Shown here one piece after another: positions 4,975 to 63,973 of a DNA stretch of 64,000 nt. How positions within the stretch are numbered: position 1 is the first letter of the stretch; every line of letters starts with the position of its first letter. The stretch lies in assembly GCA_025054695.1 (NCBI GenBank), contig JANWZI010000009.1:2945-66944 (forward strand), given 5' to 3'. The translations under genes were made by a program, and so were the position numbers. The DNA comes from Myxococcota bacterium. Lineage in GTDB: Bacteria > Myxococcota_A > Polyangia > Polyangiales > JANWZI01. The notes below the pieces were generated by a model, which searched no databases, was not told where the DNA came from, and was given only the letters and a program-made list of their open reading frames with translations.

Positions 4975-5052
4975 GAGCGCGAGTCCGAGTCCGAGCCCGA
5001 GCCCGAGTTCGAGTCCGACCCCGAGGCGGAACCGGAGACCGAGCCCGAGTCC
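4975..5052 (+). repeat. Degenerate hexamer array R1, 13 units of GAGNCC
   Basis: GAGCGC GAGTCC GAGTCC GAGCCC GAGCCC GAGTTC GAGTCC ...; between convergent genes. Confidence 0.9.
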
Positions 5053-5102
5053 AGCTCGAAGACAGACTGCGGAATCCCGTCCGAGGCGGCCGACCGCCGT
5101 CG

Positions 5103-7976
5103 TCAGTCGATCCAGGAGACCATCTCGGGGCGCCGCGTCCGGTAATTCTCGTCGACGTAGTCGAGCAACTCGAGCAAGAACGTCTCCATCTGGGCGCCGG
5201 ACGGCGTGCCGCGCGGCGCGTCCGTGTAGAAAGTGCCCTTGAGGCATTCCTCGCCCCGGCAACGGCCGTCGGGAAACACGAAAATCATCTTCTGGAAACG
5301 CGCGTGCTCCGCAATCGCCGTCGAGGTCATGTAATTCCAGAACAAAATCCCCGTCGGCAATAGGTCCGCCGGTTCCATGCCATAGCCGTGGAGAAACACC
5401 ACGACGGGATATCGCTGATCGCGGAATTCCTCGAGGTGATAGCCGGGTGGCAAGATGATCGTGACGGGGCCGGTGCGACCGGTGCTCGCGGTGAACTCGA
5501 ACAGGATCTGGCTGGGATTGGGACAGTCCGGTCGGCCCGACTCGCATAGCCGATCGGTGACGCGGCGTCGGTCGCCACCCGGCCAGCGCGCGCTCATCCA
5601 CGACAGGGGCGCGAGCAGCCGATTGACGGCCTGAACGATGGTGCCCACGTGCGCGCCGTCCCCCATCTGGATGTCGGCCTCGGCGGCGTCCGGATCCCCG
5701 TACCGCACGAGGACGTACTTGCCGACGCCGTGCCAGAAGACGTCGGTGAACACGAATTCTTCGTCGGATCGACGGCCGTCGAGGTGCAGCGAGCCGTGGC
5801 GATTGTAGTAACGCACCGGGAGCCCCCGGGCGACGAGCGCGGACACCATGAAGTTGCTCGCCGTCGCGCCGAGGAACAGATCCCGGATGCCGCCGTCGGC
5901 GAACACGTCGAGGTTTTGCAGCGCGACCAGCGGCGCTGCGCGGATGAGCTCGCGCGGCCCCCGTGCGAGCATCCGCCGCGCCCCGTGCGCCATGTCCCAG
6001 CATCCGTTGCCTTCGCCCCGGTCGAAACCGCCGTCCGCCAGTTGCCGCGTGCCGAGGACGCCGTCGAGACCGACGTCGAGGAACGCCTCTCCGTCGGCGG
6101 GATTGCACGGGTCGCCGTTGCGGATCAGGTCGCCCTCGGTCCCCGTCGGATTGTACTGATAGTCGAAGTCGTCTCCGGCGGGGTCCGGGTTCGTGATGGG
6201 GTCGTACCCCCGCTCGTCTCGATTGCAAACCCGATCGACGCCACAATCGTCCCAGGGCTCGCGCCCGTTGCGGATCACCGGCTCTCCCGGATCGCGCCGT
6301 CCATTGGCATTGACGTCGACCGCGAGGGCCACCTCGACCGGTGTGTCGTTCGGCCCCGCCGGATCCCAGCGCCCGACGTCGCGCTCGCCGCCGACGACGC
6401 GTTCGGCTCCGTCGCAAAACGCGATGACGGGATGGCGTCCCTCCGGATTGTACTCGTCGTCGAAGAATCCCGTGCCGGGCGCTCCGCTGTAGGGCGGAAT
6501 GATCACCGGCTCGCGGCAGCGCTGGCTCGACGGACGGGTCAGTTCGCTCGCCGGAACGCCCGGGGGCAAGACGTTCGGTTCGTCCTCGGTCGCGGCGCGG
6601 TCGGTGTTGGGATTGCCGAACATGCGCGCCAGATCGCGGAAGATGGTGACGTACTCGCGGCGGTCGAAGCGCCCACCCTGTCCGTCGTGCTCGTCGACGT
6701 AGTACCAGTCCTCGAAATGCTGCGCGTGCTCGTGCATGTACCGGGGCGGCGGCACGCGCGCGAGGGAGGCGCCGGCCTCGCAAGAGGCCGGATCGCGGCG
6801 CCGTTCTTCGTCGGTGCAGAAGCCCCCGAGGTGGTAGTCGCGCATGTATTGCAGCATGTACTGCCAATCCCATGCGGCGCCCAGCGGCGCGAGGAAGTCG
6901 AACCGATCGAGATTGCGAAGGCCGGCGATCCCCGTTCCGCCACCGCCCATGGAAATGCCCGTGATTCCCCGGAAGGTCATCCGCCGCATGCGCGGGCGGC
7001 CCGCGTCGGCGCGCACCACCGCTTGATAGGTTCCCAGTCGGGGGGCCTCGAAGACGAGCCGTCCGTCCGGTCCCCCGGTCCACTGGACGAACGCCACGGG
7101 GACGCGCCGCGGCGTCGGCACGCCGGGGCCGGTGTACGTCAGCTCCACGTGGCCGTCGTGGGCGCCCTCCGGGAGTCGGGTGCGTCGGACCGGAATGGCC
7201 ATGGGGACCTCGCGCGCGAAGCGAAGGTGCACGGGACCGAAGCGAACGGCCGGACCGAGCGGTAGCCAGCCGTCGGGCACCTGGTCGGGCGCGCAGCCGA
7301 TGGACGCGTCGAAGGGCTCGACGTGATAGCGATCGCGGCGCGCCGAGTTGGGCGTCAGCGCCACGAAGGCGCCGGCGAGCGAGCCGTCGGCGACGCGAAG
7401 CTCGCCTCCCGGGGTGACACGGCCGCTCGCCATTCCCGAACATGGGGGCAGCTCGTCCGCGGTCACGACCACGTCGAGGGTTGCGGTGACCGGTGACGGG
7501 TCACCCGTCGGCGGTTGCCACCGCGCCGTCAGTCGCGTGCGGCCGGTGCCCAAACCCCGCAGGCGCACCTCGGCACGGCTCGTGTTGCGCTCGATGCGCA
7601 ACCTCGACGGCTCGAGCGCTACCACCGAGGAGTCTTCCAGCGTCAGCTCGACGTCCATGTCGACGCAGGGGTTGTCGCGCGACAGGAGCAGCGCCGCGAC
7701 GCGCGTGCGGCCCGGCACGGTGCCCACCTCGGCGGGCTCGAAGCGCAGCGCCGGCCGCGCGCGACACTCTTCCTCCGCGTCGGGCCCGGCATCCACGAAC
7801 CGCCGCGGCGGGTCGTCTCCGCCGCATGCCGCCGCACCCGCAGCGAGCAACAGCGCGAAAGCCCACCCCCACCCGCTGCCCGCACCGCGGAGGGCGTGAG
7901 CCAGGGGGACATGCGGGATCCGGCCGGCCCGGCAATCGCCGGTCACGGCGCAACAAGTCGAGAACGCACGAAGCAC
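5103..7976 (-). CDS. Large lipoprotein with alpha/beta-hydrolase (esterase) motifs; start uncertain
   Basis: Lipobox-like LLLAAGAAAC; GISMGG nucleophile elbow; C-terminal ILPPGY..YPVVVFLHGYG..VFPDG..LLDYVDENYRT. Confidence 0.8.
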   Translation of the reverse strand: MLRAFSTCCAVTGDCRAGRIPHVPLAHALRGAGSGWGWAFALLLAAGAAACGGDDPPRRFVDAGPDAEEECRARPALRFEPAEVGTVPGRTRVAALLLSRDNPCVDMDVELTLEDSSVVALEPSRLRIERNTSRAEVRLRGLGTGRTRLTARWQPPTGDPSPVTATLDVVVTADELPPCSGMASGRVTPGGELRVADGSLAGAFVALTPNSARRDRYHVEPFDASIGCAPDQVPDGWLPLGPAVRFGPVHLRFAREVPMAIPVRRTRLPEGAHDGHVELTYTGPGVPTPRRVPVAFVQWTGGPDGRLVFEAPRLGTYQAVVRADAGRPRMRRMTFRGITGISMGGGGTGIAGLRNLDRFDFLAPLGAAWDWQYMLQYMRDYHLGGFCTDEERRRDPASCEAGASLARVPPPRYMHEHAQHFEDWYYVDEHDGQGGRFDRREYVTIFRDLARMFGNPNTDRAATEDEPNVLPPGVPASELTRPSSQRCREPVIIPPYSGAPGTGFFDDEYNPEGRHPVIAFCDGAERVVGGERDVGRWDPAGPNDTPVEVALAVDVNANGRRDPGEPVIRNGREPWDDCGVDRVCNRDERGYDPITNPDPAGDDFDYQYNPTGTEGDLIRNGDPCNPADGEAFLDVGLDGVLGTRQLADGGFDRGEGNGCWDMAHGARRMLARGPRELIRAAPLVALQNLDVFADGGIRDLFLGATASNFMVSALVARGLPVRYYNRHGSLHLDGRRSDEEFVFTDVFWHGVGKYVLVRYGDPDAAEADIQMGDGAHVGTIVQAVNRLLAPLSWMSARWPGGDRRRVTDRLCESGRPDCPNPSQILFEFTASTGRTGPVTIILPPGYHLEEFRDQRYPVVVFLHGYGMEPADLLPTGILFWNYMTSTAIAEHARFQKMIFVFPDGRCRGEECLKGTFYTDAPRGTPSGAQMETFLLELLDYVDENYRTRRPEMVSWID

Positions 7977-7995
7977 GGCGCTATCGTACTGGGCG

Positions 7996-17852: not shown

Positions 17853-17886
17853 CTCGGGCTCGGTCTCCGACTCGGTCTCGGACTCG
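17853..17886 (-). repeat. Degenerate hexamer array R2 (5-6 units)
   Basis: ctcgggctcggtctccgactcggtctcggactcg, about 10 nt after the suhB stop. Confidence 0.75.
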
Positions 17887-19989: not shown

Positions 19990-20030
19990 GAGCACCGCAC
20001 CGAGCCCTCGCTCCGTAGCTGGAGTGGGAG

Positions 20031-20148
20031 CTCGGGATCGCGCTCGGACTCGGACTCGGTCTCGGTCTCGGTCTCGGACTCGGACTCGCTCTCGGTCTCG
20101 GTCTCGGTCTCGGACTCGGTCTCCGACTCGGACTGTGGCTCGTACTCG
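20031..20148 (-). repeat. Degenerate hexamer array R3 (about 19 units)
   Basis: Runs of ctcgga/ctcggt between the convergent kinase and glycosyltransferase genes. Confidence 0.9.
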
Positions 20149-21450: not shown

Positions 21451-21666
21451 CGCGAAAACCACTTGGGATTTCGCTTACACCCCCGTCGCGCAGCGTACGC
21501 GCGTTCACATTCCGCTGGGTCGCGCGACGGCGACTCGGAGGTCGCGGTGCGCGGCGATCGACTTGCTCGCTCGCGCCCGGTCGGATGTCCACGATGCGCT
21601 TCCCGCGGTCTCCGAGCGGCTGTCACGGCGCCGTTCGTGTCGATCGATGGCGCGGAGCGGCGTTGC

Positions 21667-21720
21667 GAGCCCGAGCCCGTTTCCGAGTCCGAGTCGGAGC
21701 CCGAGTCCGAGTCCGAATCG
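21667..21720 (+). repeat. Degenerate hexamer array R4 (9 units)
   Basis: gagcccgagcccgtttccgagtccgagtcggagcccgagtccgagtccgaatcg in a divergent intergenic region. Confidence 0.85.
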
Positions 21721-21904
21721 CGATCGAGCAACGTGACCGCCGCCGTCAGGCGCGGACTCGGAAGGATGCCGCGCGCATGTCACGCGGCGCGACGGATCGC
21801 GGAGGCGACCCGGAGGGCGCAAGGATCGACGGTTCGTTCCGTGGAACGCGCCGGCGTCGACGCGCGCCCGCGTGTGCCGGAGCGACGACGATACCGAGGC
21901 TTGC

Positions 21905-25440: not shown

Positions 25441-25578
25441 GAGCTCGAGGCCGAATCCGAGGCCGAGTCGGAGTCTGAGCCCGTGCCCGAGTCCGAGTCC
25501 GAGACGAACTCCGAGTCCGTGCCGGAGACAGAGCCCGAGTCCGAGGTCGAGTCCGAGACCAGGTCGGAGCCCGAGCCT
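25441..25578 (+). repeat. Degenerate hexamer array R5 (23 units)
   Basis: GAGNCC-phased run ending about 12 nt before the rimO ORF. Confidence 0.9.
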
Positions 25579-39245: not shown

Positions 39246-39416
39246 CGGGTCGTGGTCGGGCCCGGATGCGGTCCTGGTCTCGGACTCGGGCTCGGTCGCT
39301 GACTCGGTCTCGGACTCGGTCTCGGACCCGGATCCCGCTCGGGACTCGGTCTCGGTTTCGAGCTCTGTCTCGGTCTCGGGCTCGGATCCGGCTCGGGTCT
39401 CGGTCTCGAGCTCGAG
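39246..39416 (-). repeat. Degenerate hexamer array R6 (about 28 units)
   Basis: ctcgga/ctcggt/ctcggg run filling most of the gap between the convergent slt and eno genes. Confidence 0.9.
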
Positions 39417-39443
39417 CGCGGGGCCGCACGATCGAGCGGCCGC

Positions 39444-40754: not shown

Positions 40755-40783
40755 CTACCGGCGCGCGTCACGGCTGTCAACGC

Positions 40784-40850
40784 GGGCTCGGGCTCGGACT
40801 CGGACTCGGGCTCGGGCTCGGGCTCCGACTCGGGCTCAGCCACGGGCTCG
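40784..40850 (-). repeat. Degenerate hexamer array R7 (about 11 units)
   Basis: ggctcg/gactcg run between the eno start and the ATPase leader. Confidence 0.88.
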
Positions 40851-40936
40851 GGGCCCTGCGCGGCGCGATCCATTTCCCGAATCGCAAAGAAAAAAGAAGA
40901 ACGGCAGCCGGAAAACGTTGCGAACCGCCGCACGTG

Positions 40937-42330: not shown

Positions 42331-42456
42331 GACTCCGGCTCGGATTCGGACCCGGGCGCCGACTCGGGCTCGGTCTCAGGCTCGGTCTCGGGCTCGGTCT
42401 CGGTCTCGGGCTCGGGCTCGGGCTCGGTTCTGGGCTGGCTCTCGGACTCCGACTCG
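42331..42456 (-). repeat. Degenerate hexamer array R8 (about 21 units)
   Basis: gactcg/ggctcg/gtctcg run downstream of the ATPase. Confidence 0.9.
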
Positions 42457-47564: not shown

Positions 47565-47649
47565 CGGCGACGCGCGACGCGTCGGCCGAGCGGGTCGGGC
47601 GAGGTGCCTTTGGGAGCCGAGCCCACCTCCGAGACGGAGGTTGATGGCG

Positions 47650-47721
47650 GAGTCCGAGTACGAGTCCGAGACGGACTCCGAGACCGAATCCGAGCCCGAC
47701 TCCGAGACCGAGTCCGAGACG
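47650..47721 (+). repeat. Degenerate hexamer array R9 (12 units)
   Basis: gagtccgagtacgagtccgagacggactccgagacc... Confidence 0.88.
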
Positions 47722-47741
47722 CAGCCCCCCGACCGCGGCGT

Positions 47742-48207: not shown

Positions 48208-48321
48208 AGGTCCGAGTCCGTGTCAGAGTCCGAGGCCGAGTCCGAGGTCGAGTCAGAATCCGTGTCGGAGACCGAGTCCCAACCCGAACCCGAGACCGAG
48301 TCCCAAACCGAATCCGAGGCC
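48208..48321 (+). repeat. Degenerate hexamer array R10 (19 units)
   Basis: GAGNCC-phased run abutting the guaA stop codon. Confidence 0.9.
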
Positions 48322-48322
48322 C

Positions 48323-52900: not shown

Positions 52901-53130
52901 CGTGGCGCGGCCGGCGCCGAAGGCTTGGGAACGTCCTCGCGGCGGTTTCGGTCGCGACGCAGCTCGCCCCGTTCCAATTTCTCTTCCAGATACCGCTCTT
53001 CGTCGCGCGTCAACGACGTCGCGCCCCCTCGGTAGTCACGATCCTTGCTCGCGAAGGGGCTCTCGCGCAGCGCCCGCTTGACGTCCATGACGGACACGCC
53101 GTGCCGGTCGGCCCACTTCTCAAGCTCCAT
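49906..53130 (-). CDS. UvrD-like SF1 helicase with extra N-terminal domains and C-terminal TPR-like region
   Basis: GRPGAGKT (I), VTWSAALA (Ia), VVDEVQD (II), AGDESQT (III), LEDNLR (IV), TSETAKGLEF (V), LVALSR (VI); Ala/Arg-rich helical repeats follow. Confidence 0.85.
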   Translation of the reverse strand: MELEKWADRHGVSVMDVKRALRESPFASKDRDYRGGATSLTRDEERYLEEKLERGELRRDRNRREDVPKPSAPAAPRIDRTDLEGLAEAVVATSRGVPRGETPYPIYLHRDVLEWHLSSETPPERRRRCVRHLQELFAFGQPTRQKSVKGVNAGWFRTPVGGTHGQQYYMWFAMHGVPVARQHDAMKALEAFAPPGARFVRAIRHHDATATPLPLGSPDEYTPLPVADLGRDEAFPDPLFDGQRNAAHSAARIRVVIGRPGAGKTTTLHVAAELVQGRVLYVTWSAALADMARAWFRVHAPRPLEIEVMTFRELLARIAPQMRLPPERSLQEAVDGLRQRVGNALSKGPWRDGNRLRAEELYAEMHAHLVGGATPVRLDETRPACEVPRMPPSAYRALRGDLGERVVDDVLRAAEALWKADSAVVAELFAGPVAAFHRALAMQRGELEVPDALAFDWFVVDEVQDLTVSELWFLVDFVARSGRRRGVRPGLVVAGDESQTVRPTAFSFGLFRRMLAERLGPEVERHELEDNLRAPEAIATLIQRADRALYRRIPRSERPAGRRPSGAGEVTVGRVARFDTSDPSSRRRLFELFAQAAGNAALIHPAAVAPEADRKLAEELNVTLWTSETAKGLEFRVVGVLDVPEWVARFDALATNDSSHAQELARSAADRLLVALSRTAETLVLAGEWAKAPAWLLGEVIAPPERAATVGAPSTAPVEGESDDGETDEELGLITAEELGELLELDASDALARIEALATQCEHLLEQRRAPEALREAERARTLLGRRDRPGAAPRPLRERVLRLCGRAEVAAALVQRDADRLQRAARRYRQADRADVATLLSRLSRASQTAAETGAPVDGEALRDVVSRLASVRQVEPALEESLMHWIAQIVDRVEARGAVALPTDKKGRAALLDGLVALAAEAPSDRDRFAQVEQTVRHRVLEQLAATAGSPAREEYRAHRSGLRDEGFGARLDARRAETDGEYALAAELYARCGEWEQALRCLRRALRWAEAARLAERVESPDAAWLRWAADLEALLERKPAGGALTDEERAHLAERVGAVLGAEVRRRRGG

Positions 53131-53206
53131 CGACCCCAATCGTGACAGAACGGTGCCACCGCCGCAGCCCGGCTCGGCAGGAGACGCACGCGTGCCGTTG
53201 CTCGCT

Positions 53207-53334
53207 TCGGTCTCGGACTCAGACTCGGTCTCGGCCTCGGTCTCCGACTCGAGCCCGGACTCGGACTCGGGCTCCGACTCGGTCTCGGATTCCTTCGCGG
53301 ACTCGGACTTGTTCGCGGCTTCGGGCTCGAGCTC
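53207..53334 (-). repeat. Degenerate hexamer array R11 (about 21 units)
   Basis: tcggtc/tcggac run between the divergent helicase and acylase genes. Confidence 0.88.
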
Positions 53335-53471
53335 TCACTTGAGCGCAGCTGCTTGGGCTCGGGCGCCGGGCTTGCGCCGCGACGCCCGCCGTCGCCGACC
53401 CGTGGCGGAGCGCGTGCGGCGCTGGCACAGTCACCGCTGGCGTGCCCGACAGGCACGCGCGGAGGCGTGGC

Positions 53472-56189
53472 ATGCGTTTGTTGCTTTCCGTGACGTTCGC
53501 GACCGCGGCGGCATCGATGGCGGGCGTCGGGTCGGTCGGGTGCGGTGGGGTCGACGTCGGGCCGCGGGACGGCGGCGCGGATGCCCCGCTCGACGCGGGG
53601 GTCGACGGCGGTTCCTGCGAGGAAAATCCGCTCGGTCCGGGTTGCCCCACGTGTGACGACGATCCGTCGCTACCGTGGTGCCTCGACTGCGACGAAGATC
53701 CCTCGCTGCCCGACTGTCCCTTCGAGGAGCCGACGTTCCGGGGTCCGTCGGCGGACATCGAGGTCATCCGCGACACCCTGGGCATCCCGCACATCTATGC
53801 GGCGACCGACGCCGACGCGATGTTCGCCTCGGGCTACATGCAAGCCGTCGACCGGCTTTTCCAGATGGATTTGCGCCGCCGCCAGGCACTCGGCCGTCAG
53901 GCGGAGCTGTTCGGCGAGGGGCACGCCCGCCAGGACGAGATCCTTCGCACGATGAATCTGCGCGGGCTCGCGCGGTCCACCGCGATCGCGATGCAGCGCG
54001 AGGACCCGGAGCTGTTCGAGCTGCTCGTCGCCTGGACGGCCGGTGTCAACCGGCGCATCGACGAGGTGCTTTCGGGTGCCGCACCGCTTCCCTATGGCTT
54101 CGGCCCCGAGGGGCTCGGCTACCGGCCGGAGCGATGGAGCGTGCTCGACCCGATCGCCATCGGCAAGCTGCTGCTCTTCGGCAACGCGAACCACCTCGAA
54201 TACGAGATTCTCGCGTCGATTCTGCGGCAGTACTTGCCCGAGATCTGGGACAACTTCTCGCTGTTCATCCCGCTCGAAGAGGTCTACACGCTGCCGCCGG
54301 AGCTGCGGCCCGAGTCACCGCGTCCGGGCGGTGGACGAGGCGGTGCTCCGCGCGATCGCACCTCGACGCCGCGTCGTTGGCCTGCGTTTTCGTTCCCGCC
54401 GGACGCGCGGCGGCGGCTCGGCGAGTTCCTCGACGCGATGCGGCCGCTGCGTCCGTGGGCGAGCAACAACTGGGCCGTCGCGGGGCGGCACACGGTCGAC
54501 GGGCGCCCGATGCTCGCCTCCGATCCGCATCAGCCGCTCCGCTCGCCGTCGCTGTTCTGGGCGCACCACATGAGCGCGACCGGTCCCGACGGCCGCACCC
54601 AGGTCATCGGCTGGAGCTTCGTCGGCACGCCGGGCGTGCAGCTCGGCCACAACGACCGCGTCGCGTGGGCCGCGACGACGACGTACGCGGACACGATGGA
54701 CCTGTGGAGCGTGCAGGTCCGGCGCGGCGTCGCGCGCGTCGCCGGGCGTGCCATTCCCGTGCTGCGCCACGAGGAGCGCATCGAGATTCGCGGCGCCGAG
54801 CCCCGCACGCTCGTCGTCGAGCGGGTGCCGGGGCACGGCGTGCTGCTACCCGAGGACCTCTCCCCGTTGCCGATCGGCACGAGCGGTCGCCGGATGCTCT
54901 TCCGCTGGACCGGATTCGACCGGGGCGGCGTGGGGCACGAGTTCCAGACGTTCTACGGCTACGACATTGCCCGCGACGTGCGCGAGTTCGCGGCGGCCGC
55001 CGAGCGCTGCGAGACGTGTCTGTTCAACTTCGTCGCGATCGACGCCACGTCGATGACGTACCGCAGCGTTCCGCGCGTCCCGGTCCGCATGCCGGACTCG
55101 TTCGACCGCGTCCCGTACGCCATTCTCGACGGCGACGACGAGACGACCTTCTGGACGCGTGGCGACTTGCCACTCGAACGGCTCGTACGCTTCGAGGGCG
55201 AGCCGCGCGGCTGGATCGCGACCGCCAACAACGACCCGTTCGGCTTCATCGCGGACGGCGAGGTGCTCGGCGATCCGTGGTACTTCGGGGTGTTCTTCGA
55301 TCCGGGCACGCGCGCGCGGCGCATCGAGGACGAGCTGCAGCGCCTGGTCGCGCGCGGCCGCATCACGCTCGAGGACATGCAGGCCTTGCAGACGGACACC
55401 CACAGCATCCTGGCCGATCACGTCCTCGAGCTGCTCGAGCGCGCCTGGGAGCGGCTGCCGACGGATCCGGACCTCGCGCCCTACCGCGACCGCGCGGATC
55501 TGGCGGCGCTTCGCGACGTACTGCGTCGATGGAATCGCCGGATGGACCGCAGTGAGCCGGGCGCGGTCGTCTTCGAGGGGCTGCTGTTCCTGCTCGACTC
55601 GCGCACGCTCGGCGACGAGCTGTCGCTGCTGTTCGATGCGGTGATGAGCGCCTCGCCGACGACCGTGCACAAGTGGGCCCTGCTCGCACTCAAAGGGCGC
55701 TTCGAGAACGCGGAGATGCTGGTGCCCGAAGGGCCGCACGTCGTGGTGATGCGCGCGCTCGCCGAGACGGCCGACTGGCTTCGGTCGCGGTTCGGCGGCA
55801 TCGAGCCCGAGCGATACCGGTGGGCCGACCTCCACGAGACGTGTTTCGGAGCGGATATCGCCGGGCTCGAGGTGCCGTGCGTCCCGACCGACGGCGCGGA
55901 CGGAACGGTGGACGTCTCCGAGGGCGAGCTGTTCGGCCCGGATGGGTTCCGCGAGAAGGTCCAGTCGGGCGCGGGGGCCATCTTCCGCGCCGTGTACCGG
56001 ATTCGGGACGACGGCACGCCCGAGGTATGGGCGAACTTCCCCCGCGGCAACGTCGGCGACCCGCGCAGCCCGCATTTCTCCGATTTGCTCGAGGACTGGG
56101 TGGAAGGCCGGTATCGTCGGCTTCCGTTCCGGCGTGACGAGGTCGAGGCGGCCGCCGTCGAACGGCTCACCATCGCGCGTTCGCCCTGA
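53472..56189 (+). CDS. Penicillin acylase family Ntn-hydrolase, probable lipoprotein
   Basis: RDTLGIPHIYA, QAVDRLFQMD, ASNNWAVAG, LASDPH, IATANND, PRGNVGDPRSPHFSD. Confidence 0.92.
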   Translation: MRLLLSVTFATAAASMAGVGSVGCGGVDVGPRDGGADAPLDAGVDGGSCEENPLGPGCPTCDDDPSLPWCLDCDEDPSLPDCPFEEPTFRGPSADIEVIRDTLGIPHIYAATDADAMFASGYMQAVDRLFQMDLRRRQALGRQAELFGEGHARQDEILRTMNLRGLARSTAIAMQREDPELFELLVAWTAGVNRRIDEVLSGAAPLPYGFGPEGLGYRPERWSVLDPIAIGKLLLFGNANHLEYEILASILRQYLPEIWDNFSLFIPLEEVYTLPPELRPESPRPGGGRGGAPRDRTSTPRRWPAFSFPPDARRRLGEFLDAMRPLRPWASNNWAVAGRHTVDGRPMLASDPHQPLRSPSLFWAHHMSATGPDGRTQVIGWSFVGTPGVQLGHNDRVAWAATTTYADTMDLWSVQVRRGVARVAGRAIPVLRHEERIEIRGAEPRTLVVERVPGHGVLLPEDLSPLPIGTSGRRMLFRWTGFDRGGVGHEFQTFYGYDIARDVREFAAAAERCETCLFNFVAIDATSMTYRSVPRVPVRMPDSFDRVPYAILDGDDETTFWTRGDLPLERLVRFEGEPRGWIATANNDPFGFIADGEVLGDPWYFGVFFDPGTRARRIEDELQRLVARGRITLEDMQALQTDTHSILADHVLELLERAWERLPTDPDLAPYRDRADLAALRDVLRRWNRRMDRSEPGAVVFEGLLFLLDSRTLGDELSLLFDAVMSASPTTVHKWALLALKGRFENAEMLVPEGPHVVVMRALAETADWLRSRFGGIEPERYRWADLHETCFGADIAGLEVPCVPTDGADGTVDVSEGELFGPDGFREKVQSGAGAIFRAVYRIRDDGTPEVWANFPRGNVGDPRSPHFSDLLEDWVEGRYRRLPFRRDEVEAAAVERLTIARSP

Positions 56190-57042: not shown

Positions 57043-57174
57043 GAGCTCCAGTCGCAGTCGGAGCCCGAGACAGAGTCCGAGACCGAGTCCGAGACCGAGA
57101 CAGAGTCCGAGCCTGTGACCGAGCCCGTGACCGACCCCGTGACCGAGTCCGAGCCCGAGACCGACTTGGATCCG
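57043..57174 (+). repeat. Degenerate hexamer array R12 (22 units)
   Basis: gagcccgagacagagtccgagaccgagtcc... Confidence 0.9.
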
Positions 57175-57236: not shown

Positions 57237-58556
57237 ATGGAGATCCTTTTCATCAGCGACGCGGTGGCTCCGTTCGGAACCGGTTGGGCCGCCGAGGCCG
57301 CCGCGTGTCTCGGCAAGGCGCTGCGCTCGTCCGGGCACCGCGTGACGGTCGTCTGCCCGCTGCCGCCGGGAATCGACCCGGTGCGCCGTTCGCTCTCGCG
57401 GCGTCTGACGCGGCTCGAGGGGCAAGGCGACGGGGGGCGAGTGAGCTTCGACGTCTACGAGGGCCGCACGCCCGGTGGTGTCGAGACGGTGCTTCTCGGC
57501 GCCCAGGGTCACTCGTGCGACGTGGCATCGGAGCCGTCGATGGGCGCGGCGTTCGCGGACGCCGTCGTACGGCTCGTGAAGCAGCGTACTGCCGCGCCGG
57601 ACATCGTGCACGCGGAGGGCCGAGCCGGTGCGGCGGCGCTCGTTGCATTCGATTCGGACGAGGCTCCCGCCGCGCCACGGATCCTCGTGGTGCGGCCGGG
57701 CGACGCGGATGACGAGCGCACGGCCCGCGCGCTCGCCGTCGCCGACGCGCTCGTGGTTCCGTCTCCGACGGTCGCTCGCCGACTGCGCGAAGAGGACTCC
57801 GAGCAGGGACCCCTGGCGGCCTTCGTTCGCGAGGGGCGCGGCCCCGTCGTCGGCATCCTCGATGGCCTGGACGCCGCAGTCTGGAACCCAATGACCGATC
57901 CGCTTCTGCCCGCGCGCTTCGATGCGTTCGACCGCGCGGGCAAGTCCACCTGCCGCATCGAGCTGCAGCGCCGTCTCGAGCTCCCGCTGCGCGCGGACAT
58001 TCCCCTGGTCGCGGCTCTGGTCGGCGCGGCCGATGGCGGCTGGCAGCTCCTCGAGGCGACGGCGCCGCGGATTCTGCGCAACGAGCTCGAGCTCGTCCTG
58101 CTGCTCGACGGGCCGCCCGATGATCCCCGATTCGAGCGGCTGCGCGCCGTGGCGGCGCGCTATTCCGAGCGGTGCGCCGCGGTCGGCGCCAGCGCGGAGC
58201 TCCTTCACCGCGCGATTGCCGCGGCCGACGTCGTGCTGTGTCCCCCCGCGGGTGCCCCTGGTACTTCGCTGCACCTGTCTGCGTGTCGCTACGGCGCTCT
58301 GCCCGTCGTGCGGCGCACGCCATGGACTGCGGATGCCCTCGTCGATTGCGATCCCGCGCTCGAGACGGGCGATGCGTTCTTCTTCGACCGCGTCGACGAA
58401 GAGGAATGGCTCGCCACCGTTCGCCGTGCCGTGGCTGCGTTCCATCGGGGCGCGCGTTTCGAGGCGCGGCGCACCCACGTCATGCGCCGGGATCACTCCT
58501 GGGATCGGGCCGCCCGCCAGTACGAGGCGCTGTACCGCCGCCTCACCGCCGGCTGA
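57237..58556 (+). CDS. Glycogen synthase (GlgA/GT5)-like protein with degenerate catalytic motifs
   Basis: MEILFISDAVAPF, PDIVHA, GILDGLDAAVWNPMTD, RYGALPVVRRT, DHSWDRAARQYEALY. Confidence 0.82.
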   Translation: MEILFISDAVAPFGTGWAAEAAACLGKALRSSGHRVTVVCPLPPGIDPVRRSLSRRLTRLEGQGDGGRVSFDVYEGRTPGGVETVLLGAQGHSCDVASEPSMGAAFADAVVRLVKQRTAAPDIVHAEGRAGAAALVAFDSDEAPAAPRILVVRPGDADDERTARALAVADALVVPSPTVARRLREEDSEQGPLAAFVREGRGPVVGILDGLDAAVWNPMTDPLLPARFDAFDRAGKSTCRIELQRRLELPLRADIPLVAALVGAADGGWQLLEATAPRILRNELELVLLLDGPPDDPRFERLRAVAARYSERCAAVGASAELLHRAIAAADVVLCPPAGAPGTSLHLSACRYGALPVVRRTPWTADALVDCDPALETGDAFFFDRVDEEEWLATVRRAVAAFHRGARFEARRTHVMRRDHSWDRAARQYEALYRRLTAG

Positions 58557-58578
58557 CGTCGGTCGGGGTTCGATCGCC

Positions 58579-58705
58579 GGACTCGGCCTCCGGCTCGGGC
58601 TCGGGCTCGGGCTCGGACTCTGTCTCGGTCTCGGTCTCGGTCTCCGACTCGGACTCGGTCTCGGTCTCGGTCTCCGACTCGGACTCGGCCTCCGGCTCGG
58701 ACTCG
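58579..58705 (-). repeat. Degenerate hexamer array R13 (about 21 units)
   Basis: ctcggg/ctcggt/ctcgga run after the glgA-like stop. Confidence 0.9.
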
Positions 58706-58765
58706 CACGCGGTCCCGAGCGACCCCTCTTGTCGGTGTGCACGCATCGGCGCGACGCTGGGCCCG

Positions 58766-60199
58766 GTGCTCGCTGCCGTCATCGGCTGGATCGCCGCATC
58801 GTTCGCCGTCCCGGCTCGCGCCGAGCCCGACGCCGGTGCGGATGCCGGTTCCGCCTATTGTCCGCCGGACGTCGTCGAATGCCACGGCGAGCCGCTGGAC
58901 TTCGAATGGAGCGAGGCGGCGTTCGAGGGCATCGATCTCGACACGGGCTGGGTGCCCCCCGACGGCGCGATCCAGCTCCGCTTCGGGCTGCGCGCAGCCG
59001 GGCGCACGCGCATCGCGATGGGCACCACGGGCGCGCTGTGGTGGCCCGCGCCCATCGAGGCATCCCTCGTGGGCAGGCGCGGCGGCGGTCGACTCGAGAT
59101 CGATTACGGTCTCGAGATCACCGCGCGGCTGCGGTTCGACGTCGAGGTGGCGGGTTCCCGCTACCGCTGGGAAGGCGACATCCCCCTGCCCGGCGGGATT
59201 CCGCGCGACCTGGCGGCCTCGGCGAGCGGAACGTTCGACCCGCTGCTGCTTCCCGGTGCGTCGGATCGCCCGGTCGAGGTGTCCGATGCGACGGGCCGCA
59301 TCCGGCTCTTGCGCTACGACGCCATCGGGGCGGTCGTCTCGATTCCCGGTGTCGGTGGCGGAGTCGCCGCCGACGTGTCCGTCCGTCTGGACGCGCGCTA
59401 CGCGACCGATCGCGTCGAGGTGCGCACGGGGCGCGTCATCGAGCGCGAGGGGGCCGCTTCGGTGCTCTCGCCGCCGACCGGTTCCATCGACGGGTTCGGC
59501 GGCTCCGTGTCGGTGGGCTTCGGCCCGGTCGGCACGCTCGAGCGCGAGGTCTGGTTGACGGTCTATCCGACGCTCTACCTCGAGATCGTCGGCCGGCGTT
59601 TCGACTACACGATCGCCACCATCGAAGCGCGCGTCGCGGCGGAGCGCACGGAGGTGCGTTTCGAACCGCGTACGCTGCACGCGGCGCTCCCCGACGCCGA
59701 CGTCACTCCCTTGGAGATGGATTTCGGCCCGGTTCCGGTCGGCGGTCGCGCCGAGCGCTTCGTCGACGTCTTCGACGACGGCGAGGCGCCACTTCGAGTG
59801 ACGGCCGCCGAGCCCGAGGGGCCGTTCGAGGTCGACCCGCTGGCGCTCGACGTCGAACCGCACGCCACGCGACGCCTGTCGGTCCGTTTCGCCCCGCTCC
59901 ACGCCGGGCCCCACGCCTCGACGTTGCTGCTGTCGACGAACGACCCGGACGAGCCGCTGCTCGCGGTGCGGCTTCGCGGAGAAGGTGTCGCCGTGGATGG
60001 CGGCGTTCCCGACGCGGGCGCGGACGCGGCGCCGGAGGCTTCGGGAATGCCGGGCCCGTACCGGCCGGCGAGCGCGGGAGGATGCGGCTGTCGTCTGGGT
60101 CGGCCGCGCTCGTGGCTCGTCGAGGGGACGTCGGTCGTGGCGTTGGCCTTCGTGGCCTGCGCCCGACGTCCACGGCGCCCCCGGCACGTGCGTCGCTAG
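58766..60199 (+). CDS. Secreted protein with Ig-like domain and MYXO-CTERM-like sorting tail; start uncertain
   Basis: Signal ending PARA; MDFGPVPVG..VRFAP..LSTNDPDEP..LRGEG; tail GGCGC + hydrophobic segment + RRPRR. Confidence 0.75.
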   Translation: MLAAVIGWIAASFAVPARAEPDAGADAGSAYCPPDVVECHGEPLDFEWSEAAFEGIDLDTGWVPPDGAIQLRFGLRAAGRTRIAMGTTGALWWPAPIEASLVGRRGGGRLEIDYGLEITARLRFDVEVAGSRYRWEGDIPLPGGIPRDLAASASGTFDPLLLPGASDRPVEVSDATGRIRLLRYDAIGAVVSIPGVGGGVAADVSVRLDARYATDRVEVRTGRVIEREGAASVLSPPTGSIDGFGGSVSVGFGPVGTLEREVWLTVYPTLYLEIVGRRFDYTIATIEARVAAERTEVRFEPRTLHAALPDADVTPLEMDFGPVPVGGRAERFVDVFDDGEAPLRVTAAEPEGPFEVDPLALDVEPHATRRLSVRFAPLHAGPHASTLLLSTNDPDEPLLAVRLRGEGVAVDGGVPDAGADAAPEASGMPGPYRPASAGGCGCRLGRPRSWLVEGTSVVALAFVACARRPRRPRHVRR

Positions 60200-61389
60200 C
60201 GGAGCGTCGCGACCGCGTCCCGGATGCGTTGCAATCCCCGCTCGAGCAGGGGCATCGCGGTCGCGTAACTGAAACGAATGTAACCTGGCTCACCAAACGC
60301 GGTTCCCGGCACCGCCGCGCACAGCGCGTCCTCGAGCAGGAAACTGGCGACATCGGTGTCGTCGCGCAGCTCGCGCTGGCCCCAGCGGCGGCCGAGCAGC
60401 CCCCGGACGTCGGCGAACGCGTAAAAGGCCCCCTCCGGCACGGCGCACCGGATGCCGTCGATGGAATCGAGTCCCGCGACCAGCACGTCGCGCCGCCTGC
60501 GGAATTCGTCGCGCATGCGCTGCAACGGTTCGCGCGCCCCGGTCAAGGCCGCCAGCGCCGCGTGCTGCGCGACTGCGGTCGGATTGCTCGTCGACTGCCC
60601 CTGGACGAGCTCGCACGCGCGCACGAGCGATCGCGGCCCGATCAGCCATCCGATGCGCCAGCCCGTCATCGCGAACGTCTTGCTCACTCCGTCGACAACG
60701 ACGACGCGTTCGCGCAGGTCGGGAGCCACCGAGAGCAACGAAACGTGGGAACGGCCGTCGTAGACGAGCTCACCGTAGATTTCGTCAAGCACGATCCACG
60801 CGTCGATCCGGCGCAGGACCTCGGCGAGGGCGGCCAGTTCCGCCGCGTCGTAGGCCGCGCCCGTCGGGTTGCTGGGACTGCACAAGACGACCGCGCGCGT
60901 GCGCGGGCTCGCGGCGGCGGCCAGCGCTTCGGGCGTCAGCCGGAAACGCGGCCCCTCGGTGCGCACGACGACCGGCCGGGCACCGAGCAGCCGGGCGTGC
61001 TCCGGGTAGCTCACCCAGTACGGCGACGGAATGATCACCTCGTCGTCGGGCTCGTAGAGGGCGAGCGCCAGATTGAACAGCGCGTGCTTGGCACCGACGG
61101 TGACGAGCACTTCGTCCGGTTCGTGGCGCACGCCCCGGCGCCGCGCGCTGTCTTCGGCGACGGCGGCGCGCAGCTCCGCGATGCCCGCGACGGCTGTGTA
61201 GTGCGACGCATGGGCCGTGGCGCGCCGCGCCGCCTCCAGGACGTGCTCGGGCGGGTCGAAGTCCGGCTCGCCGAGCGCGAACGAGATGACGTCGCGCCCT
61301 GCGGCGCGCAGCGTCGCCGCGCGCTGCGCGACGTGCAGCGTGGCCGACGGCTCGATGCCCGCCAGGCGCGCCGCGAGGGTCGTGCTCAT
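60196..61389 (-). CDS. Class I/II PLP-dependent (aspartate) aminotransferase
   Basis: GEPDF, GAKHAL, PYWVSY, SPSNPTG, DEIY, SKTFAMTGWRIG, VPGTAFG. Confidence 0.95.
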   Translation of the reverse strand: MSTTLAARLAGIEPSATLHVAQRAATLRAAGRDVISFALGEPDFDPPEHVLEAARRATAHASHYTAVAGIAELRAAVAEDSARRRGVRHEPDEVLVTVGAKHALFNLALALYEPDDEVIIPSPYWVSYPEHARLLGARPVVVRTEGPRFRLTPEALAAAASPRTRAVVLCSPSNPTGAAYDAAELAALAEVLRRIDAWIVLDEIYGELVYDGRSHVSLLSVAPDLRERVVVVDGVSKTFAMTGWRIGWLIGPRSLVRACELVQGQSTSNPTAVAQHAALAALTGAREPLQRMRDEFRRRRDVLVAGLDSIDGIRCAVPEGAFYAFADVRGLLGRRWGQRELRDDTDVASFLLEDALCAAVPGTAFGEPGYIRFSYATAMPLLERGLQRIRDAVATLR

Positions 61390-61464
61390 CGCGCCTCGCT
61401 TCATATCACGCGCTGCGCTGCCGCCCCATCCACGGTCGGCGCGAGGGGCGGGCCCGAGGGGGGG

Positions 61465-61683
61465 TCCGAGTCCGAGGCCGTGTCGGAGTCCGTGTCCGAG
61501 TCCGAGACCGAGACCGAGACCGAGTCCGCGCCCGAATCCGAGCCCGGGTCCGAGTCCGAGGCGAAGCCCGAGTCCGAGGCAGAGCCCGAGACCGAGACCG
61601 AGACCGAGTCCGAGTCAGAGACCGAGACCGAGTTCGAGTCCGAGACCGAGTCCGAGTCCGAGTCCGAGTCCGAGTTGGAACCG
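61465..61683 (+). repeat. Degenerate hexamer array R14 (about 36 units, the longest)
   Basis: Long tccgag/accgag/cccgag run upstream of the aminotransferase. Confidence 0.92.
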
Positions 61684-62085
61684 CCATCAGACGACGTGAC
61701 TTCCGCTGTCAGTGACCGGAGCCGAGCCAGGTGCACATTCGGATGCCCGAGTCGTTCCGTCGTCCGCCCCGGCGTCCGCGACCCATGATCGGGGCCGCAC
61801 GAGCACCCTCCCGGCTCCTTGGTGGCTCGTTCCACGGCTCGAGGCAAACAAGCATGGCAAAATCGAAAGAAAATCCGGTAGATGCAGTCGCGTCGGTAGC
61901 GCCGGCGGCGTAACATGACAGTGTCTTGAATACAGTGTGATACGGTTGCTGTGGGGGTGGACTGTCGGCGCGAATAAAGGCGGCGGAGACGCCGTCCTCG
62001 GCGTCAGTCGCATCCGGTCCGTCCGTCACCGTTCGCGCCGGCGGGACGACGCATGAAGCGGTTACGAAGGAAAGGAGATAGAAAA

Positions 62086-63289: not shown

Positions 63290-63406
63290 CGGCTCGAAGT
63301 CGAGCTCGGCCTCGGTCTCGGACTCGGGCTCGGTCTCGGGATCGGTCTCGGGATCGGACTCGCTCTCGGGCTCGGACTCGGTCTTGGACTCGGGATCGGG
63401 ATCGGT
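63290..63406 (-). repeat. Degenerate hexamer array R15 (about 19 units)
   Basis: ctcggt/ctcgga/atcggg run upstream of the four-helix-bundle gene. Confidence 0.9.
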
Positions 63407-63467
63407 GACTGCGCCCGCTCGCGTGTCGCCGCGCCTCGTCGCCTCGGGGGGTGTGCAGCCAGTAGGC

Positions 63468-63513
63468 GCGAAAGAACACGTGCCAGCACACGACGCTGTC
63501 ACGGTTCTTTCGC
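63468..63513 (+). other. 18-bp bulged hairpin directly before the RBS of the four-helix-bundle gene
   Basis: GCGAAAGAAC-a-CGTG-c-CAGC-[ACACGAC]-GCTG-t-CACG-GTTCTTTCGC. Confidence 0.75.
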
Positions 63514-63525
63514 TCGGAGGCGGGC

Positions 63526-63858
63526 ATGCACACCCCCCTTCGGCTCGAGGCGCTGGACCTGTTGCTCGACACGATCACGCGCATGCGCCCGCTCGTCGAA
63601 TCGATCGAATCGGTCGACCGAGACCTCGCACGACAAATCCGGCGCGCGGCGAGCAGCGCGGCGCTCAACCTGGCCGAGGCTGACGGCAGTGACCGGGGCA
63701 ATCGTCGCGCGAGGCTGCACACGGCGCTCGGGTCCCTTCGCGAGGCGCGGGTGGGGCTGCGCGTGGCGGTAGCATGGGGCTACGTCGACGACGTCGCGGA
63801 AGCGGAGCGCGCGCTGGACCGCGTTGCGGCGATGACGTGGGGTCTGCTGCGGCGGTGA
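63526..63858 (+). CDS. Four-helix-bundle protein (23S rRNA IVP / Avd-like superfamily)
   Basis: DLARQIRRAASSAALNLAEADG..RARLHTALGSLRE..AVAWGYV; RBS GGAGG at 63516-63520. Confidence 0.9.
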   Translation: MHTPLRLEALDLLLDTITRMRPLVESIESVDRDLARQIRRAASSAALNLAEADGSDRGNRRARLHTALGSLREARVGLRVAVAWGYVDDVAEAERALDRVAAMTWGLLRR

Positions 63859-63860
63859 GG

Positions 63861-63973
63861 CGGACTCGGACTCGGACTCGGTCCCGGACTCGGACTCGGA
63901 CTCGGACTCGGGGTCGGGGTCGGGCTCGGACTCGGACTCTGCCTCGGTCTCCGACTTGGTCTCGGTCTCGGTC
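63861..63973 (-). repeat. Degenerate hexamer array R16 (about 19 units)
   Basis: cggact/cggggt/cggtct run starting 2 nt after the four-helix-bundle stop. Confidence 0.92.

Follow-up and report, generated by a model that had tools for sequence, protein, structure and literature searches.

The 64-kb window (the whole stretch of 64,000 nucleotides that was analyzed) raises the question of how numerous degenerate hexamer arrays sharing one consensus came to lie between its genes and what maintains them. Tandem Repeats Finder identified 16 arrays with a period of 6 nt, which span 34-212 nt (5.7-35 units) each and sum up to 1,691 nt or 2.6% of the window (Table 1). The sequence-only reading had listed the same number of dispersed arrays and estimated their extent at about 1.8 kb. 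All 159 matches to a four-unit pattern (GAGNCC x4, at most two mismatches) were located within these 16 arrays and kept the 6-nt phase, and 100 dinucleotide-preserving shuffles of the window yielded no match. The GAGNCC strand is the plus strand for seven arrays and the minus strand for nine, which verified the proposed occurrence of phased arrays in both orientations.

Gene calls were obtained by our own codon-score segmentation, in which 5' ends are approximate, and combined with Pfam-anchored gene ends. The proposed intergenic location was observed for 15 of the 16 arrays. The exception is array 11 (53207-53318), which falls within the region where the AAA-protein frame (49906-53334) remains open on its 5' side; the first Pfam match of this frame begins only at residue 312. 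Pfam matches show complete enolase, GMP synthase and MiaB-like genes that end or start right beside arrays. An assembly artefact was ruled out, as arrays are entered by contigs from three public runs, which belong to two studies; one of these contigs (X1, 40808-42391) reaches from array 7 to array 8 and another (X3, 52192-53285) ends within array 11. All three runs that hold the stretch carry the label hot springs metagenome.

Table 1. Hexamer arrays of the window and the tail modules adjoining two of them.
Feature	Position	Strand	Units	Genomic context
Array 1	4975..5052	+	~13	convergent gap: + frame end 4623 / esterase-domain gene 5103-7976 (-)
Array 2	17853..17886	-	~5.7	tandem gap: + frame end 17843 / Ser/Thr kinase 18040-19989 (+); antisense to both flanking genes
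Array 3	20043..20131	-	~15	convergent gap: kinase stop 19989 / - frame 20207-21592; in phase across 20028-20147
Array 4	21666..21720	+	~9	divergent gap, 5' of relA/spoT 21947-24145 (+); followed by tail module
Tail module after array 4	21709..21753	+		nhmmer E 7e-8; head-array-tail composite element
Array 5	25446..25575	+	~22	tandem gap: + frame end 25339 / MiaB-like gene start 25590, 14 nt on
Array 6	39256..39421	-	~22-28	fills convergent gap: SLT-domain gene stop 39244 / enolase stop 39444
Array 7	40783..40852	-	~12	divergent gap: enolase / DUF4143 ATPase 41029-42282 (+); begins 29 nt 5' of enolase start (40754)
Array 8	42333..42427	-	~16	convergent gap: ATPase stop 42282 / peptidase gene 42552-44222 (-); in phase as far as 42461
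Array 9	47648..47721	+	~12	1.3-kb convergent gap past PMT_2 glycosyltransferase 44275-47010 (+)
Array 10	48210..48321	+	~18	ends 1 nt from stop codon of GMP synthase 48323-49870 (-)
Array 11	53207..53318	-	~17	divergent gap: AAA protein (-) / penicillin amidase 53442-56189 (+)
Array 12	57056..57164	+	~18	tandem gap: + frame end 57020 / glycosyltransferase 57237-58556 (+)
Array 13	58578..58714	-	~22	tandem gap: glycosyltransferase stop 58556 / Ig-like-domain gene 58745-60199 (+); antisense to both flanking genes
Array 14	61464..61675	+	~35	longest of the window; 5' of aminotransferase 60196-61404 (-); followed by tail module
Tail module at array 14	61672..61717	+		nhmmer E 6e-10; abuts array 14; composite element
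Array 15	63300..63406	-	~18	between + frame end 63279 and multi-copy 23S_rRNA_IVP gene; flank facing this gene conserved in flanks of 8 other arrays
Array 16	63861..63971	-	~18	begins 3 nt past IVP gene stop (63858)

A scan of the whole genome, which belongs to an uncultured myxobacterium from a hot spring, recovered about 1,000-1,100 arrays of one family with one consensus, as had been suggested from the window. After merging, 1,038 arrays cover 94,855 nt of the 4,267,713-nt genome (2.2%), and a five-unit pattern matched 1,307 times compared to 19 times for the reversed control. Arrays in such numbers cannot be the product of chance or of a separate birth at each site. Array counts drop steadily with length in a roughly geometric manner, up to a maximum of 66 units. 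Unit composition was determined for 635 phase-consistent arrays of at least 12 units from the whole genome (G1 95%, A2 91%, G3 88.5%, C5 94.5% and C6 83%, with T.43, C.28, A.21 and G.08 at position 4). The resulting order of variability (4 >> 6 > 3 > 2 > 5, 1) bears out the earlier impression that variation falls mainly at positions 3, 4 and 6. Read across unit junctions, the arrays consist of a conserved CCGA core and two looser positions, and the core positions deviate from the consensus to unequal extents (4.8% to 16.6%). Array edges are sharp, with the information content of the flanks gone within about 12 nt, and a weak strand bias was noted, the GAGNCC strand being locally C-rich in 324 arrays and G-rich in 260 (p = 0.009).

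The order of the units is close to random. Only 13% of neighbouring units are identical, so that the arrays are indeed not perfect microsatellites, and the identity at position 4 between successive units (lag 1) is 0.38 versus 0.34 in shuffles. Higher-order periodicity at p < 0.01 was found in 14 of 453 arrays, and degeneracy follows no 5'-to-3' gradient. Among 735 arrays of at least 10 units, not a single pair had an exact 60-nt word in common, while 16 pairs shared a 48-nt word (4.1 expected from shuffles). The observation that no two arrays have the same unit order thus extends to the genome, and the same absence of pairs sharing 60 nt of unit order speaks against recombination between arrays, one of the mechanisms offered initially.

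Placement relative to genes was analyzed for the 802 arrays of at least six units, of which 684 lie in gaps, 28 mostly within predicted coding segments and 90 at contig edges or unassigned. Arrays are most common between convergent 3' ends, where insertion does the least harm: 212 of 400 convergent gaps (53%) contain one, compared to 22-24% of the other gaps (111 of 471 divergent and 319 of 1,434 tandem gaps). Arrays are oriented independently of the genes beside them, with 178 on the gene strand and 156 antisense in tandem gaps.

The arrays are untranslated. The opposing reading, that they encode (Glu/Asp)-(Ser/Pro/Thr/Ala)n repeats, either as many small genes of their own or by extending adjacent genes, draws on a Glu-X frame that is open across all 16 window arrays and on the variation pattern, which also fits a coded acidic repeat because the two wobble positions and the Ser/Pro/Thr/Ala switch vary the most. 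In addition, array 11 shares its frame with a 1,142-aa ORF, and three arrays of relatives (L123, L124 and L154) lie inside same-strand coding segments. Yet the Glu-X frame showed no link to the coding frames of the flanks (upstream sense frames 43/47/29) and no longer open extension than the other frames, all six being alike, and it is interrupted by stops in 48 of 656 arrays. At 0.5% each, the TAG-creating G-to-T change at position 1 is as frequent as its strand mirror, C-to-A at position 5. NCC prevails in the arrays, where position 6 is C in 83% of units, whereas the genes favor TCG, CCG and ACG. Moreover, 156 of 334 tandem-gap arrays are antisense to both neighbours and many others are squeezed between convergent stop codons, for example those at 39244 and 39444. 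Ten Glu-X-frame ORFs from the window gave only sub-threshold, compositional Pfam matches, and a conserved start context is absent except in a minority head module. AGGAGG and an ATG do precede array 16 but are separated by 1 nt, a spacing shorter than is usual for a ribosome-binding site. Taken together, translation appears very improbable. In agreement with the sequence-only reading, the arrays are also not CRISPRs. Nor are they palindromic REPs: single strands of three arrays, folded in both orientations, were no more stable than shuffles (z-scores -1.5 to +0.9). An Rfam search of the window returned three tRNAs alone, and the arrays match no Rfam family.

The pattern was present in 89 of 301 genomes of the order. 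Its density is 306 matches per Mb in the source genome and about 63, roughly five-fold lower, in the next genome (G151). Mostly intergenic arrays were found in three families of the order, namely the source genome's own and two designated f22 and f9; the relatives compared all belong to other families of the order. Most of the fetched f22 and f9 loci lie between coding segments, and 3-4 of 24 looked coding or ambiguous. While unit order in the source genome is near random, units in f22 and f9 are purer and arranged in blocks, with 62% and 43% identical neighbouring units, respectively; these loci were picked via exact pattern matches, which biases the sample toward pure arrays. Positions C5, C6, G1 and A2 are common to all three families, and the most variable position is 4 in the source genome, 3 in f22 and 4 in f9.

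A minority of the arrays, 14%, is explained by a carrier element. Searches with nhmmer identified 118 matches to a head module of about 45 nt and 117 to a tail module of about 40 nt in the genome, and 136 of 981 arrays have a head, a tail or both. Complete small elements are represented by 20 head-tail pairs enclosing 28-187 nt. The outer parts of the two modules together form a terminal inverted repeat and, in keeping with this, the outer part of the tail module at 21709..21753 is also recognized as a head when the other strand is read. No autonomous partner or mobilising gene for the element was found. Degeneracy is the same whether or not modules are present (0.488 mismatches per unit with modules versus 0.493 without, p = 0.97). 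In 43 anchored elements, the head is 0.70 identical and core positions are about 0.52-0.87 identical, while position 4, from the second unit on, has an identity of 0.27-0.37, near the value of about 0.31 that we estimate for random sequence. The deviation of the head module, estimated from its pairwise identity at about 16%, is comparable to the 5-17% at core positions.

We prefer, with about even confidence, to view the arrays as old, selfish or neutral non-coding satellite DNA that drifted after a tolerated burst. The repeat would be endemic to intergenic DNA of the order and would have been seeded at many sites, in part via the small carrier element with its terminal inverted repeats. Arrays may then have grown and shrunk through slipped-strand mispairing or unequal exchange, as suggested by the pure blocks in relatives. 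In the source lineage, a large and old burst was presumably tolerated, and subsequent drift together with gains and losses of units could have wiped out any common unit order. A sequence-specific host function would be unnecessary, and the arrays might act as passive spacers at most. Geometric lengths, the excess in convergent gaps and the lack of an orientation bias are no less compatible with tolerated selfish or neutral DNA than with a dedicated system. Nevertheless, simple slippage followed by neutral decay does not account for a free, nearly saturated position 4 next to five positions conserved to 83-95%. The near-random unit order counts against slippage as well, since this process is expected to produce stretches of identical units like those of the relatives, and the unequal conservation of the core positions is not predicted by pure neutrality. 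Among bacterial satellite DNAs of this poorly understood type, the arrays of the source genome would stand at the extreme end.

One rival explanation is a lattice of binding sites, in which a putative DNA-binding protein would recognize the CCGA core at 6-bp intervals and cover the arrays, for instance in nucleoid organisation or in the insulation of neighbouring transcription units. The core would be under selection, and heterogeneity at the two free spacer positions would guard the arrays against slippage. Such a lattice is consistent with the free position 4 and nearly random order, with C5, C6, G1 and A2 being what the three families share, with sharp array edges and with a degeneracy that is equal with or without carrier modules, as at equilibrium; an orientation unbiased to genes suits action on double-stranded DNA. 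However, no candidate protein was identified, the geometric fall-off shows no peak at a preferred size, and an excess in convergent gaps is what tolerated selfish DNA classically shows. Enolase and guaA have no adjoining arrays in four relatives. Selection per site would have to be very weak across about 15,000 units, and the core deviates (about 10%) to the same order as the non-array head module. We regard the lattice as possible but rather unlikely.

Dedicated repeat synthesis, another mechanism put forward from the window, would require an enzyme that makes new arrays where DNA is broken or nicked and copies one position unfaithfully; candidates are a reverse transcriptase, a telomerase-like activity or a nickase-plus-polymerase reaction. 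This would account for the nearly random unit order, the independence of one position from unit to unit and the unique array at each locus. The commonest unit contains GAGTC, the site of BstNBI/BspD6I, which nick 4 nt downstream of it (PMC3017599), and the cut predicted in (GAGTCC)n would fall immediately ahead of position 4 in the following unit. Nickases of this type spur thermophilic polymerases to make site-containing repeats in vitro, as described in a review (PMC10520511, section 4.7), and the hot springs label of the runs would suit such a setting. On the other hand, no RVT_1 match was found in the source genome, which is 92.6% complete, and no RE_AlwI-family match in this genome and four array-rich relatives, the latter search having no positive control. 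MutS and MutL are both present in the genome. Outside arrays, GAGTC is not depleted (observed/expected 1.05). The missing 5'-to-3' gradient in degeneracy, the pure blocks in relatives, which are typical of slippage, and the dominant f9 unit GAGACC, which has no GAGTC, argue further against synthesis, and we consider it as having only a slight chance of being correct.

Among known systems, the cyanobacterial STRR heptamers are likewise dispersed intergenic short tandem repeats. TAACTGA heptamers are dispersed between genes of Beggiatoaceae, Cyanobacteria and Bacteroidetes, and their description gives 169 sets of 2-6 copies in a Beggiatoa genome; most of the Beggiatoa repeats are located a few nucleotides 5' of start codons, suggestive of a role at the RNA level (PMC4679880). 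The resemblance lies in a short unit repeated head to tail at many intergenic sites with a lineage-restricted, patchy distribution. The arrays described here differ in having a unit of 6 rather than 7 nt with one free position, in numbering about 1,000 per 4.3 Mb with up to 66 units, and in favoring 3'-3' gaps without orientation bias instead of the vicinity of start codons.

Pneumococcal BOX, mycobacterial MIRU and Porphyromonas BrickBuilt are modular elements of leader, tandem repeat and tail, which the arrays with a head and/or tail resemble. Unlike in these elements, 86% of the arrays have no modules and are equally degenerate, and a hexamer takes the place of the 40-50-nt repeat module. 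Abundance, intergenic location and enrichment at 3' ends or between convergent genes are shared with REP/BIME sequences, which are also thought to be selfish or weakly functional, but the arrays are tandem hexamers and have neither dyad symmetry nor a hairpin. Long simple repeats are normally very few in bacterial genomes. Eukaryotic interrupted microsatellites and satellites have in common with the arrays short tandem units in non-coding DNA, geometric lengths and slippage-compatible pure blocks in related genomes. Interruptions stabilize microsatellite arrays; in the hexamer arrays they fall mainly at one unit position and are near random, rather than being point changes scattered in pure runs.

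Tandem Repeats Finder was applied to the window and recovered 16 arrays of period 6 (34-212 nt and 5.7-35 copies each, 1,691 nt in total), all at the positions proposed by the sequence-only reading and most of them without indels. Four consecutive GAGNCC units (at most two mismatches) were matched 159 times, exclusively within these arrays, and not once in 100 shuffles. Each of these matches keeps the 6-nt phase, and GAGNCC lies on the plus strand in seven arrays and on the minus strand in nine, so that the regular phase and the two orientations described earlier both hold. The genome-wide scan that had been proposed was run over the complete assembly (4.27 Mb, 261 contigs, 71% G+C), accepting units with at most one mismatch to GAGNCC in stretches of at least four units and merging neighbours. 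It revealed one dispersed family of 1,038 merged arrays covering 94,855 nt, or 2.2% of the genome. A stricter, phase-consistent definition yielded 1,110 arrays, 635 of them with at least 12 units, and longer arrays are steadily fewer. The stretch is contained in three public sequencing runs, which carry the label hot springs metagenome. Contigs from all three runs (two studies) reach into arrays, and the arrays are therefore not an artefact of a single assembly; contigs of these runs also end or break within arrays. Contig depth over array bins reflects words common to many arrays and not copy number. At array 8 (42430-42441), one contig of run X1 is 6 nt short in total at a depth of about 9 of about 20, which may represent a one-unit length variant or a misplaced contig from another array.

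The composition of the unit was determined from the phase-consistent arrays of the whole genome. Five positions are strongly conserved (G1 95%, A2 91%, G3 88.5%, C5 94.5% and C6 83%), while position 4 is occupied by T, C, A and G at frequencies of.43,.28,.21 and.08, which results in a variability ranking of 4 >> 6 > 3 > 2 > 5, 1. Degeneracy is flat from array start to array end. A 5'-to-3' degeneracy gradient was rejected as an artefact of merging out-of-phase arrays, as it disappeared in the phase-consistent set. Adjacent units are identical in only 13% of cases, the longest run of identical units comprises one to three units in 496 of 564 arrays, and at lag 1 the identity of position 4 is 0.38, compared with 0.34 in shuffles. 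Higher-order repeats were rejected, since merely 14 of 453 arrays displayed higher-order periodicity at p < 0.01. The order of unit variants is thus close to random and is unlike the product of fresh slippage. It had been noted that no two arrays share a unit order, and among 735 arrays no pair has 60 nt in common. This argues against recent copying of one array into another or gene conversion among them and leaves the earlier proposal of recombination between arrays without support.

Gene calls were based on a codon log-odds score trained on 200 long ORFs, a crude method whose coding segments cover 76% of the genome and 81% of the window. The former value is low for a bacterium, and the arrays with their long spacers are part of the shortfall. 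In the window, the segmentation places the arrays between coding segments, in agreement with the initial description, and they often fill the spacer; array 6, for example, occupies the space between stop codons at 39244 and 39444. Among 802 arrays of at least six units in the genome, 684 are located in gaps between predicted genes, 28 lie mostly within predicted genes (17 of these antisense) and 90 are at contig edges or unassigned. By gap type, arrays are present in 212 of 400 spacers between convergent genes, in 111 of 471 between divergent genes and in 319 of 1,434 between tandem genes, and median gap length is 334 nt with arrays versus 124 nt without. The median distance from stop codon to array is about 50 nt, and the next gene lies farther off. 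Orientation follows neither the gene strand in tandem gaps (178 arrays sense, 156 antisense) nor the local majority gene strand (127 versus 126). A weak link to GC skew was observed, with GAGNCC on the locally C-rich strand in 324 cases and on the G-rich strand in 260 (p = 0.009, one of several tests). No flanking motif is universal across arrays beyond the approximately 12 nt of fading repeat signal. Between 44001 and 64000, a promoter consensus scan returned no promoter-like site, and nine terminator-like sites (6.5 +/- 2.7 in shuffles) include none at any array. Positions of the features discussed are collected in the table.

Features of the window discussed in the text
Feature	Position	Strand	Remark
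Array 4	21666-21720
MiaB-like gene	from 25590		full length by Pfam
tRNA cluster, three genes	36224-36507	-	Rfam bit scores 61-74
Array 6	39256-39421
Enolase	39444-40754		full length by Pfam
Array 8	42333-42427
Convergent gap, 1.3 kb	47011-48322		arrays 9 and 10
Glu-X-frame ORF	47302-47982
Glu-X-frame ORF	48037-48762
GMP synthase (guaA)	48323-49870		full length by Pfam
Glycosyltransferase	57237-58556
Array 14	61464-61675
Array 15	63300-63406
23S_rRNA_IVP/four-helix-bundle gene, 130 aa	63466-63858	+	PF05635, E 1e-9
Array 16	63861-63971

When an array is read as GAG-NCC (the Glu-X frame), it would encode repeats of Glu followed by Ser, Pro, Thr or Ala. This frame is open in all 16 window arrays, and translation was therefore taken as the first rival explanation; the ranking of variable positions also looks codon-like. 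However, G-to-T changes at position 1, which create a stop codon, are found at 0.5% and are no rarer than the strand-mirrored C-to-A changes at position 5 (0.5%). Over the genome, the Glu-X frame reaches no farther than the other five frames and is interrupted by a stop in 48 of 656 arrays, and flanks that score as coding have a frame unrelated to it. The arrays use NCC codons but the genes favour NCG, and for ten Glu-X-frame ORFs Pfam matches were sub-threshold and compositional only. Together with the small number of arrays inside predicted genes and the mixed orientation in tandem gaps, these observations make translation very improbable. A coding low-complexity acidic repeat was rejected as a class, as the arrays lack the agreement in frame and strand with a neighbouring gene whose flanks have coding signal or homology. 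In the window, the convergent gap with arrays 9 and 10 has nearly no coding signal, and its two Glu-X-frame ORFs have no Pfam match. In array 6, the Glu-X frame coincides with that of enolase and begins directly after the enolase stop (39256-39446), so that read-through would append an acidic tail to enolase; given a one-in-three prior, this match of frames is probably a coincidence. It is very probable that the arrays are non-coding and belong to a single family of hexamer satellites dispersed between genes.

About one third of array flanks resemble the flank of another array. One large flank cluster consists of two modules that abut the array, a head of about 45 nt containing GGTCACGTTGCT and a tail of about 40 nt containing GAACCGCCATC. 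The outer parts of head and tail are inverted copies of each other, and 42 of the 118 head matches obtained with nhmmer in the genome coincide with one of the 117 tail matches on the opposite strand. MITE-like elements are known to have terminal inverted repeats round a short, non-coding, multi-copy element, target-site duplications and a related autonomous element that encodes a transposase. One or both modules are present at 136 of 981 arrays, and 20 head-tail pairs enclosing 28-187 nt form complete small elements. Of the 16 window arrays, arrays 4 and 14 alone have a module, in both cases a tail. Degeneracy is the same whether an array has modules (0.488 mismatches per unit) or lacks them (0.493). 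Among 43 head-anchored elements, pairwise identity is 0.70 for the head module, approximately 0.52-0.87 for the core positions of the unit and, from unit 2 on, 0.27-0.37 for position 4, for which the random value is estimated at about 0.31. Pairwise identities thus lead to the estimate that core positions have drifted from the consensus about as far as the head module, and position 4 keeps no memory of common descent.

Of 301 genomes in the order, 89 contain a five-unit pattern. The highest count, 1,307 matches (306 per Mb), is that of the present genome, followed by G151 (559 in 8.9 Mb), G066 (378) and G021 (228). Arrays of two other families of the order, f22 and f9, were compared with those of the group of this genome, f1 (see table). 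Most of the f22 and f9 arrays examined lie between coding segments; the exceptions are the loci L123, L124 and L154, which appear to be coding, and the ambiguous locus L151. The bases common to all three families are C5, C6, G1 and A2, which form a CCGA core over the unit junction.

Array units in three families of the order (f22 and f9 loci were chosen via exact pattern matches, which biases them to pure arrays)
Family	Dominant units	Identical neighbouring units	Position with most variation
f1 (this genome)	GAGTCC, GAGCCC, GAGACC	13%	4
f22 (G021, G035)	GAGTCC, GATTCC	62%	3
f9	GAGACC, GAGTCC	43%	4

The intergenic f22 arrays (L082-L126 of G021 and G035) are composed of blocks of GAGTCC, GATTCC and GAATCC, that is (GANTCC)n, and the base that varies in them corresponds to the N of GANTC, a methylation/restriction motif. 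In the present genome, variation falls on the following base and destroys the GANTC motif in 57% of units. No array was found at the enolase and guaA flanks in four relatives, which indicates that array positions in this genome are lineage-specific. An enolase search of genome contigs gave distant matches only (at most 67% identity), and a search of metagenome contigs with the glycosyltransferase protein found no closer relatives. A 21-nt head pattern matched 11 loci, all without arrays and without similarity to this genome, and these were dismissed as chance matches.

Selfish or neutral DNA is the most likely history of the arrays, to which we give an even chance. The repeat would be endemic to intergenic DNA of the order, the small carrier with its inverted repeats would have seeded part of the arrays, and slippage or unequal exchange would have made them longer. 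Arrays would be tolerated mainly at 3' ends, those of this lineage being old and scrambled. This history does not account for a free, randomly ordered position 4 combined with unequal conservation of the other positions, which keeps two further readings alive, a protein-binding lattice, which we consider rather unlikely, and dedicated synthesis, which appears highly doubtful. On either of these, the arrays would be the footprint of a dedicated system in this Myxococcota order, be it a lattice protein or a writing enzyme, which is rather unlikely overall. In its first form, a protein would polymerise along a 6-bp CCGA lattice, with about 1,000 intergenic arrays organising or insulating the chromosome; in the second, an enzyme would write hexamers into the DNA between genes and copy one position of the unit unfaithfully. 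The near-random position 4, the identity of the four core bases across three families and the equal degeneracy with and without carrier modules keep such a system in consideration.

The sequence-only reading had listed repeat synthesis among its mechanisms, and the searches for candidate enzymes did not substantiate it. Diversity-generating retroelements (DGRs) combine a reverse transcriptase, an accessory Avd gene and template and variable repeats that differ at adenines. The dominant f9 unit has a second, conserved adenine. PF05635, a family with an Avd-like fold, has nine matches in the genome, one of them between arrays 15 and 16, but no RVT_1 match is present in the genome, so that a DGR-like or other reverse transcription was rejected. 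Arrays 15 and 16 have the same orientation, and the gene between them (within 63407-63858) has a conserved stretch of about 110 nt that overlaps its start and includes a hairpin. Seven or eight arrays at the PF05635 copies have these flanks in common, and several copies are located at contig ends. A loss of mismatch repair was rejected, because MutS_I and MutL_C are both present here and in all four compared genomes, as was restriction-driven avoidance of GAGTC/GANTC: outside arrays, GAGTC ranks 755 of 1,024 pentamers, and its observed/expected ratio is 1.05. GAGTC is described in PMC3017599 as the site of the nickases BstNBI and BspD6I, and such nickases are indicated in PMC10520511 to make thermophilic polymerases produce site-containing repeats in vitro. 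In an array, the nick is predicted immediately ahead of position 4. No match to the RE_AlwI family was detected in any of five genomes, in a weak search without positive control in which the control genomes were unmatched too.

Bacterial genomes are usually nearly devoid of long simple repeats, whereas here one hexamer family accounts for 2.2% of a compact genome of 4.3 Mb and is present in half of its convergent gaps. Several related families have milder and purer forms and provide a natural graded series, in which pure arrays give way to scrambled ones and sparse arrays to dense ones and which could be used to study the birth, spread and tolerance of prokaryotic satellite DNA as well as protein binding by arrays. 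In practical terms, short-read assemblies break at arrays, and the long spurious acidic ORFs may be annotated as proteins by gene callers.

Finally, the arrays were compared with known repeat classes. Simple sequence repeats are head-to-tail units of 1-6 nt (up to 9 nt in some definitions), and the period and copy number of the arrays agree with this unit size. Slipped-strand mispairing leaves runs of identical units, and the adjacent identity of 13% confirms that these are not perfect microsatellites. CRISPRs have direct repeats of about 24-48 nt and unique spacers of similar length, and REP/BIME sequences are imperfect palindromes that form stable hairpins. The earlier exclusion of both classes is upheld by the 6-nt period without spacers and by fold z-scores of -1.52 to +0.91 versus shuffles for both strands of three arrays. 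Rfam 15 at gathering threshold matched no array in the window, and its sole matches were the three tRNAs. In the open-access literature, no description of a GAGNCC repeat in myxobacteria was found. The closest known kind are the heptamer repeats that are dispersed between genes in cyanobacteria and Beggiatoaceae, as far as they are covered in PMC4679880. Like these STRR and TAACTGA families, the arrays repeat a single short unit head to tail and do so at numerous distinct intergenic sites of one genome. In contrast to the TAACTGA heptamers of Beggiatoa, for which a fixed position or orientation to the downstream start codon is described there (PMC4679880), they have a 6-nt unit, a mixed orientation in tandem gaps and a location nearer to stop codons. 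The GAGNCC family adds to the dispersed intergenic short-repeat kind a new variant of unusual density.
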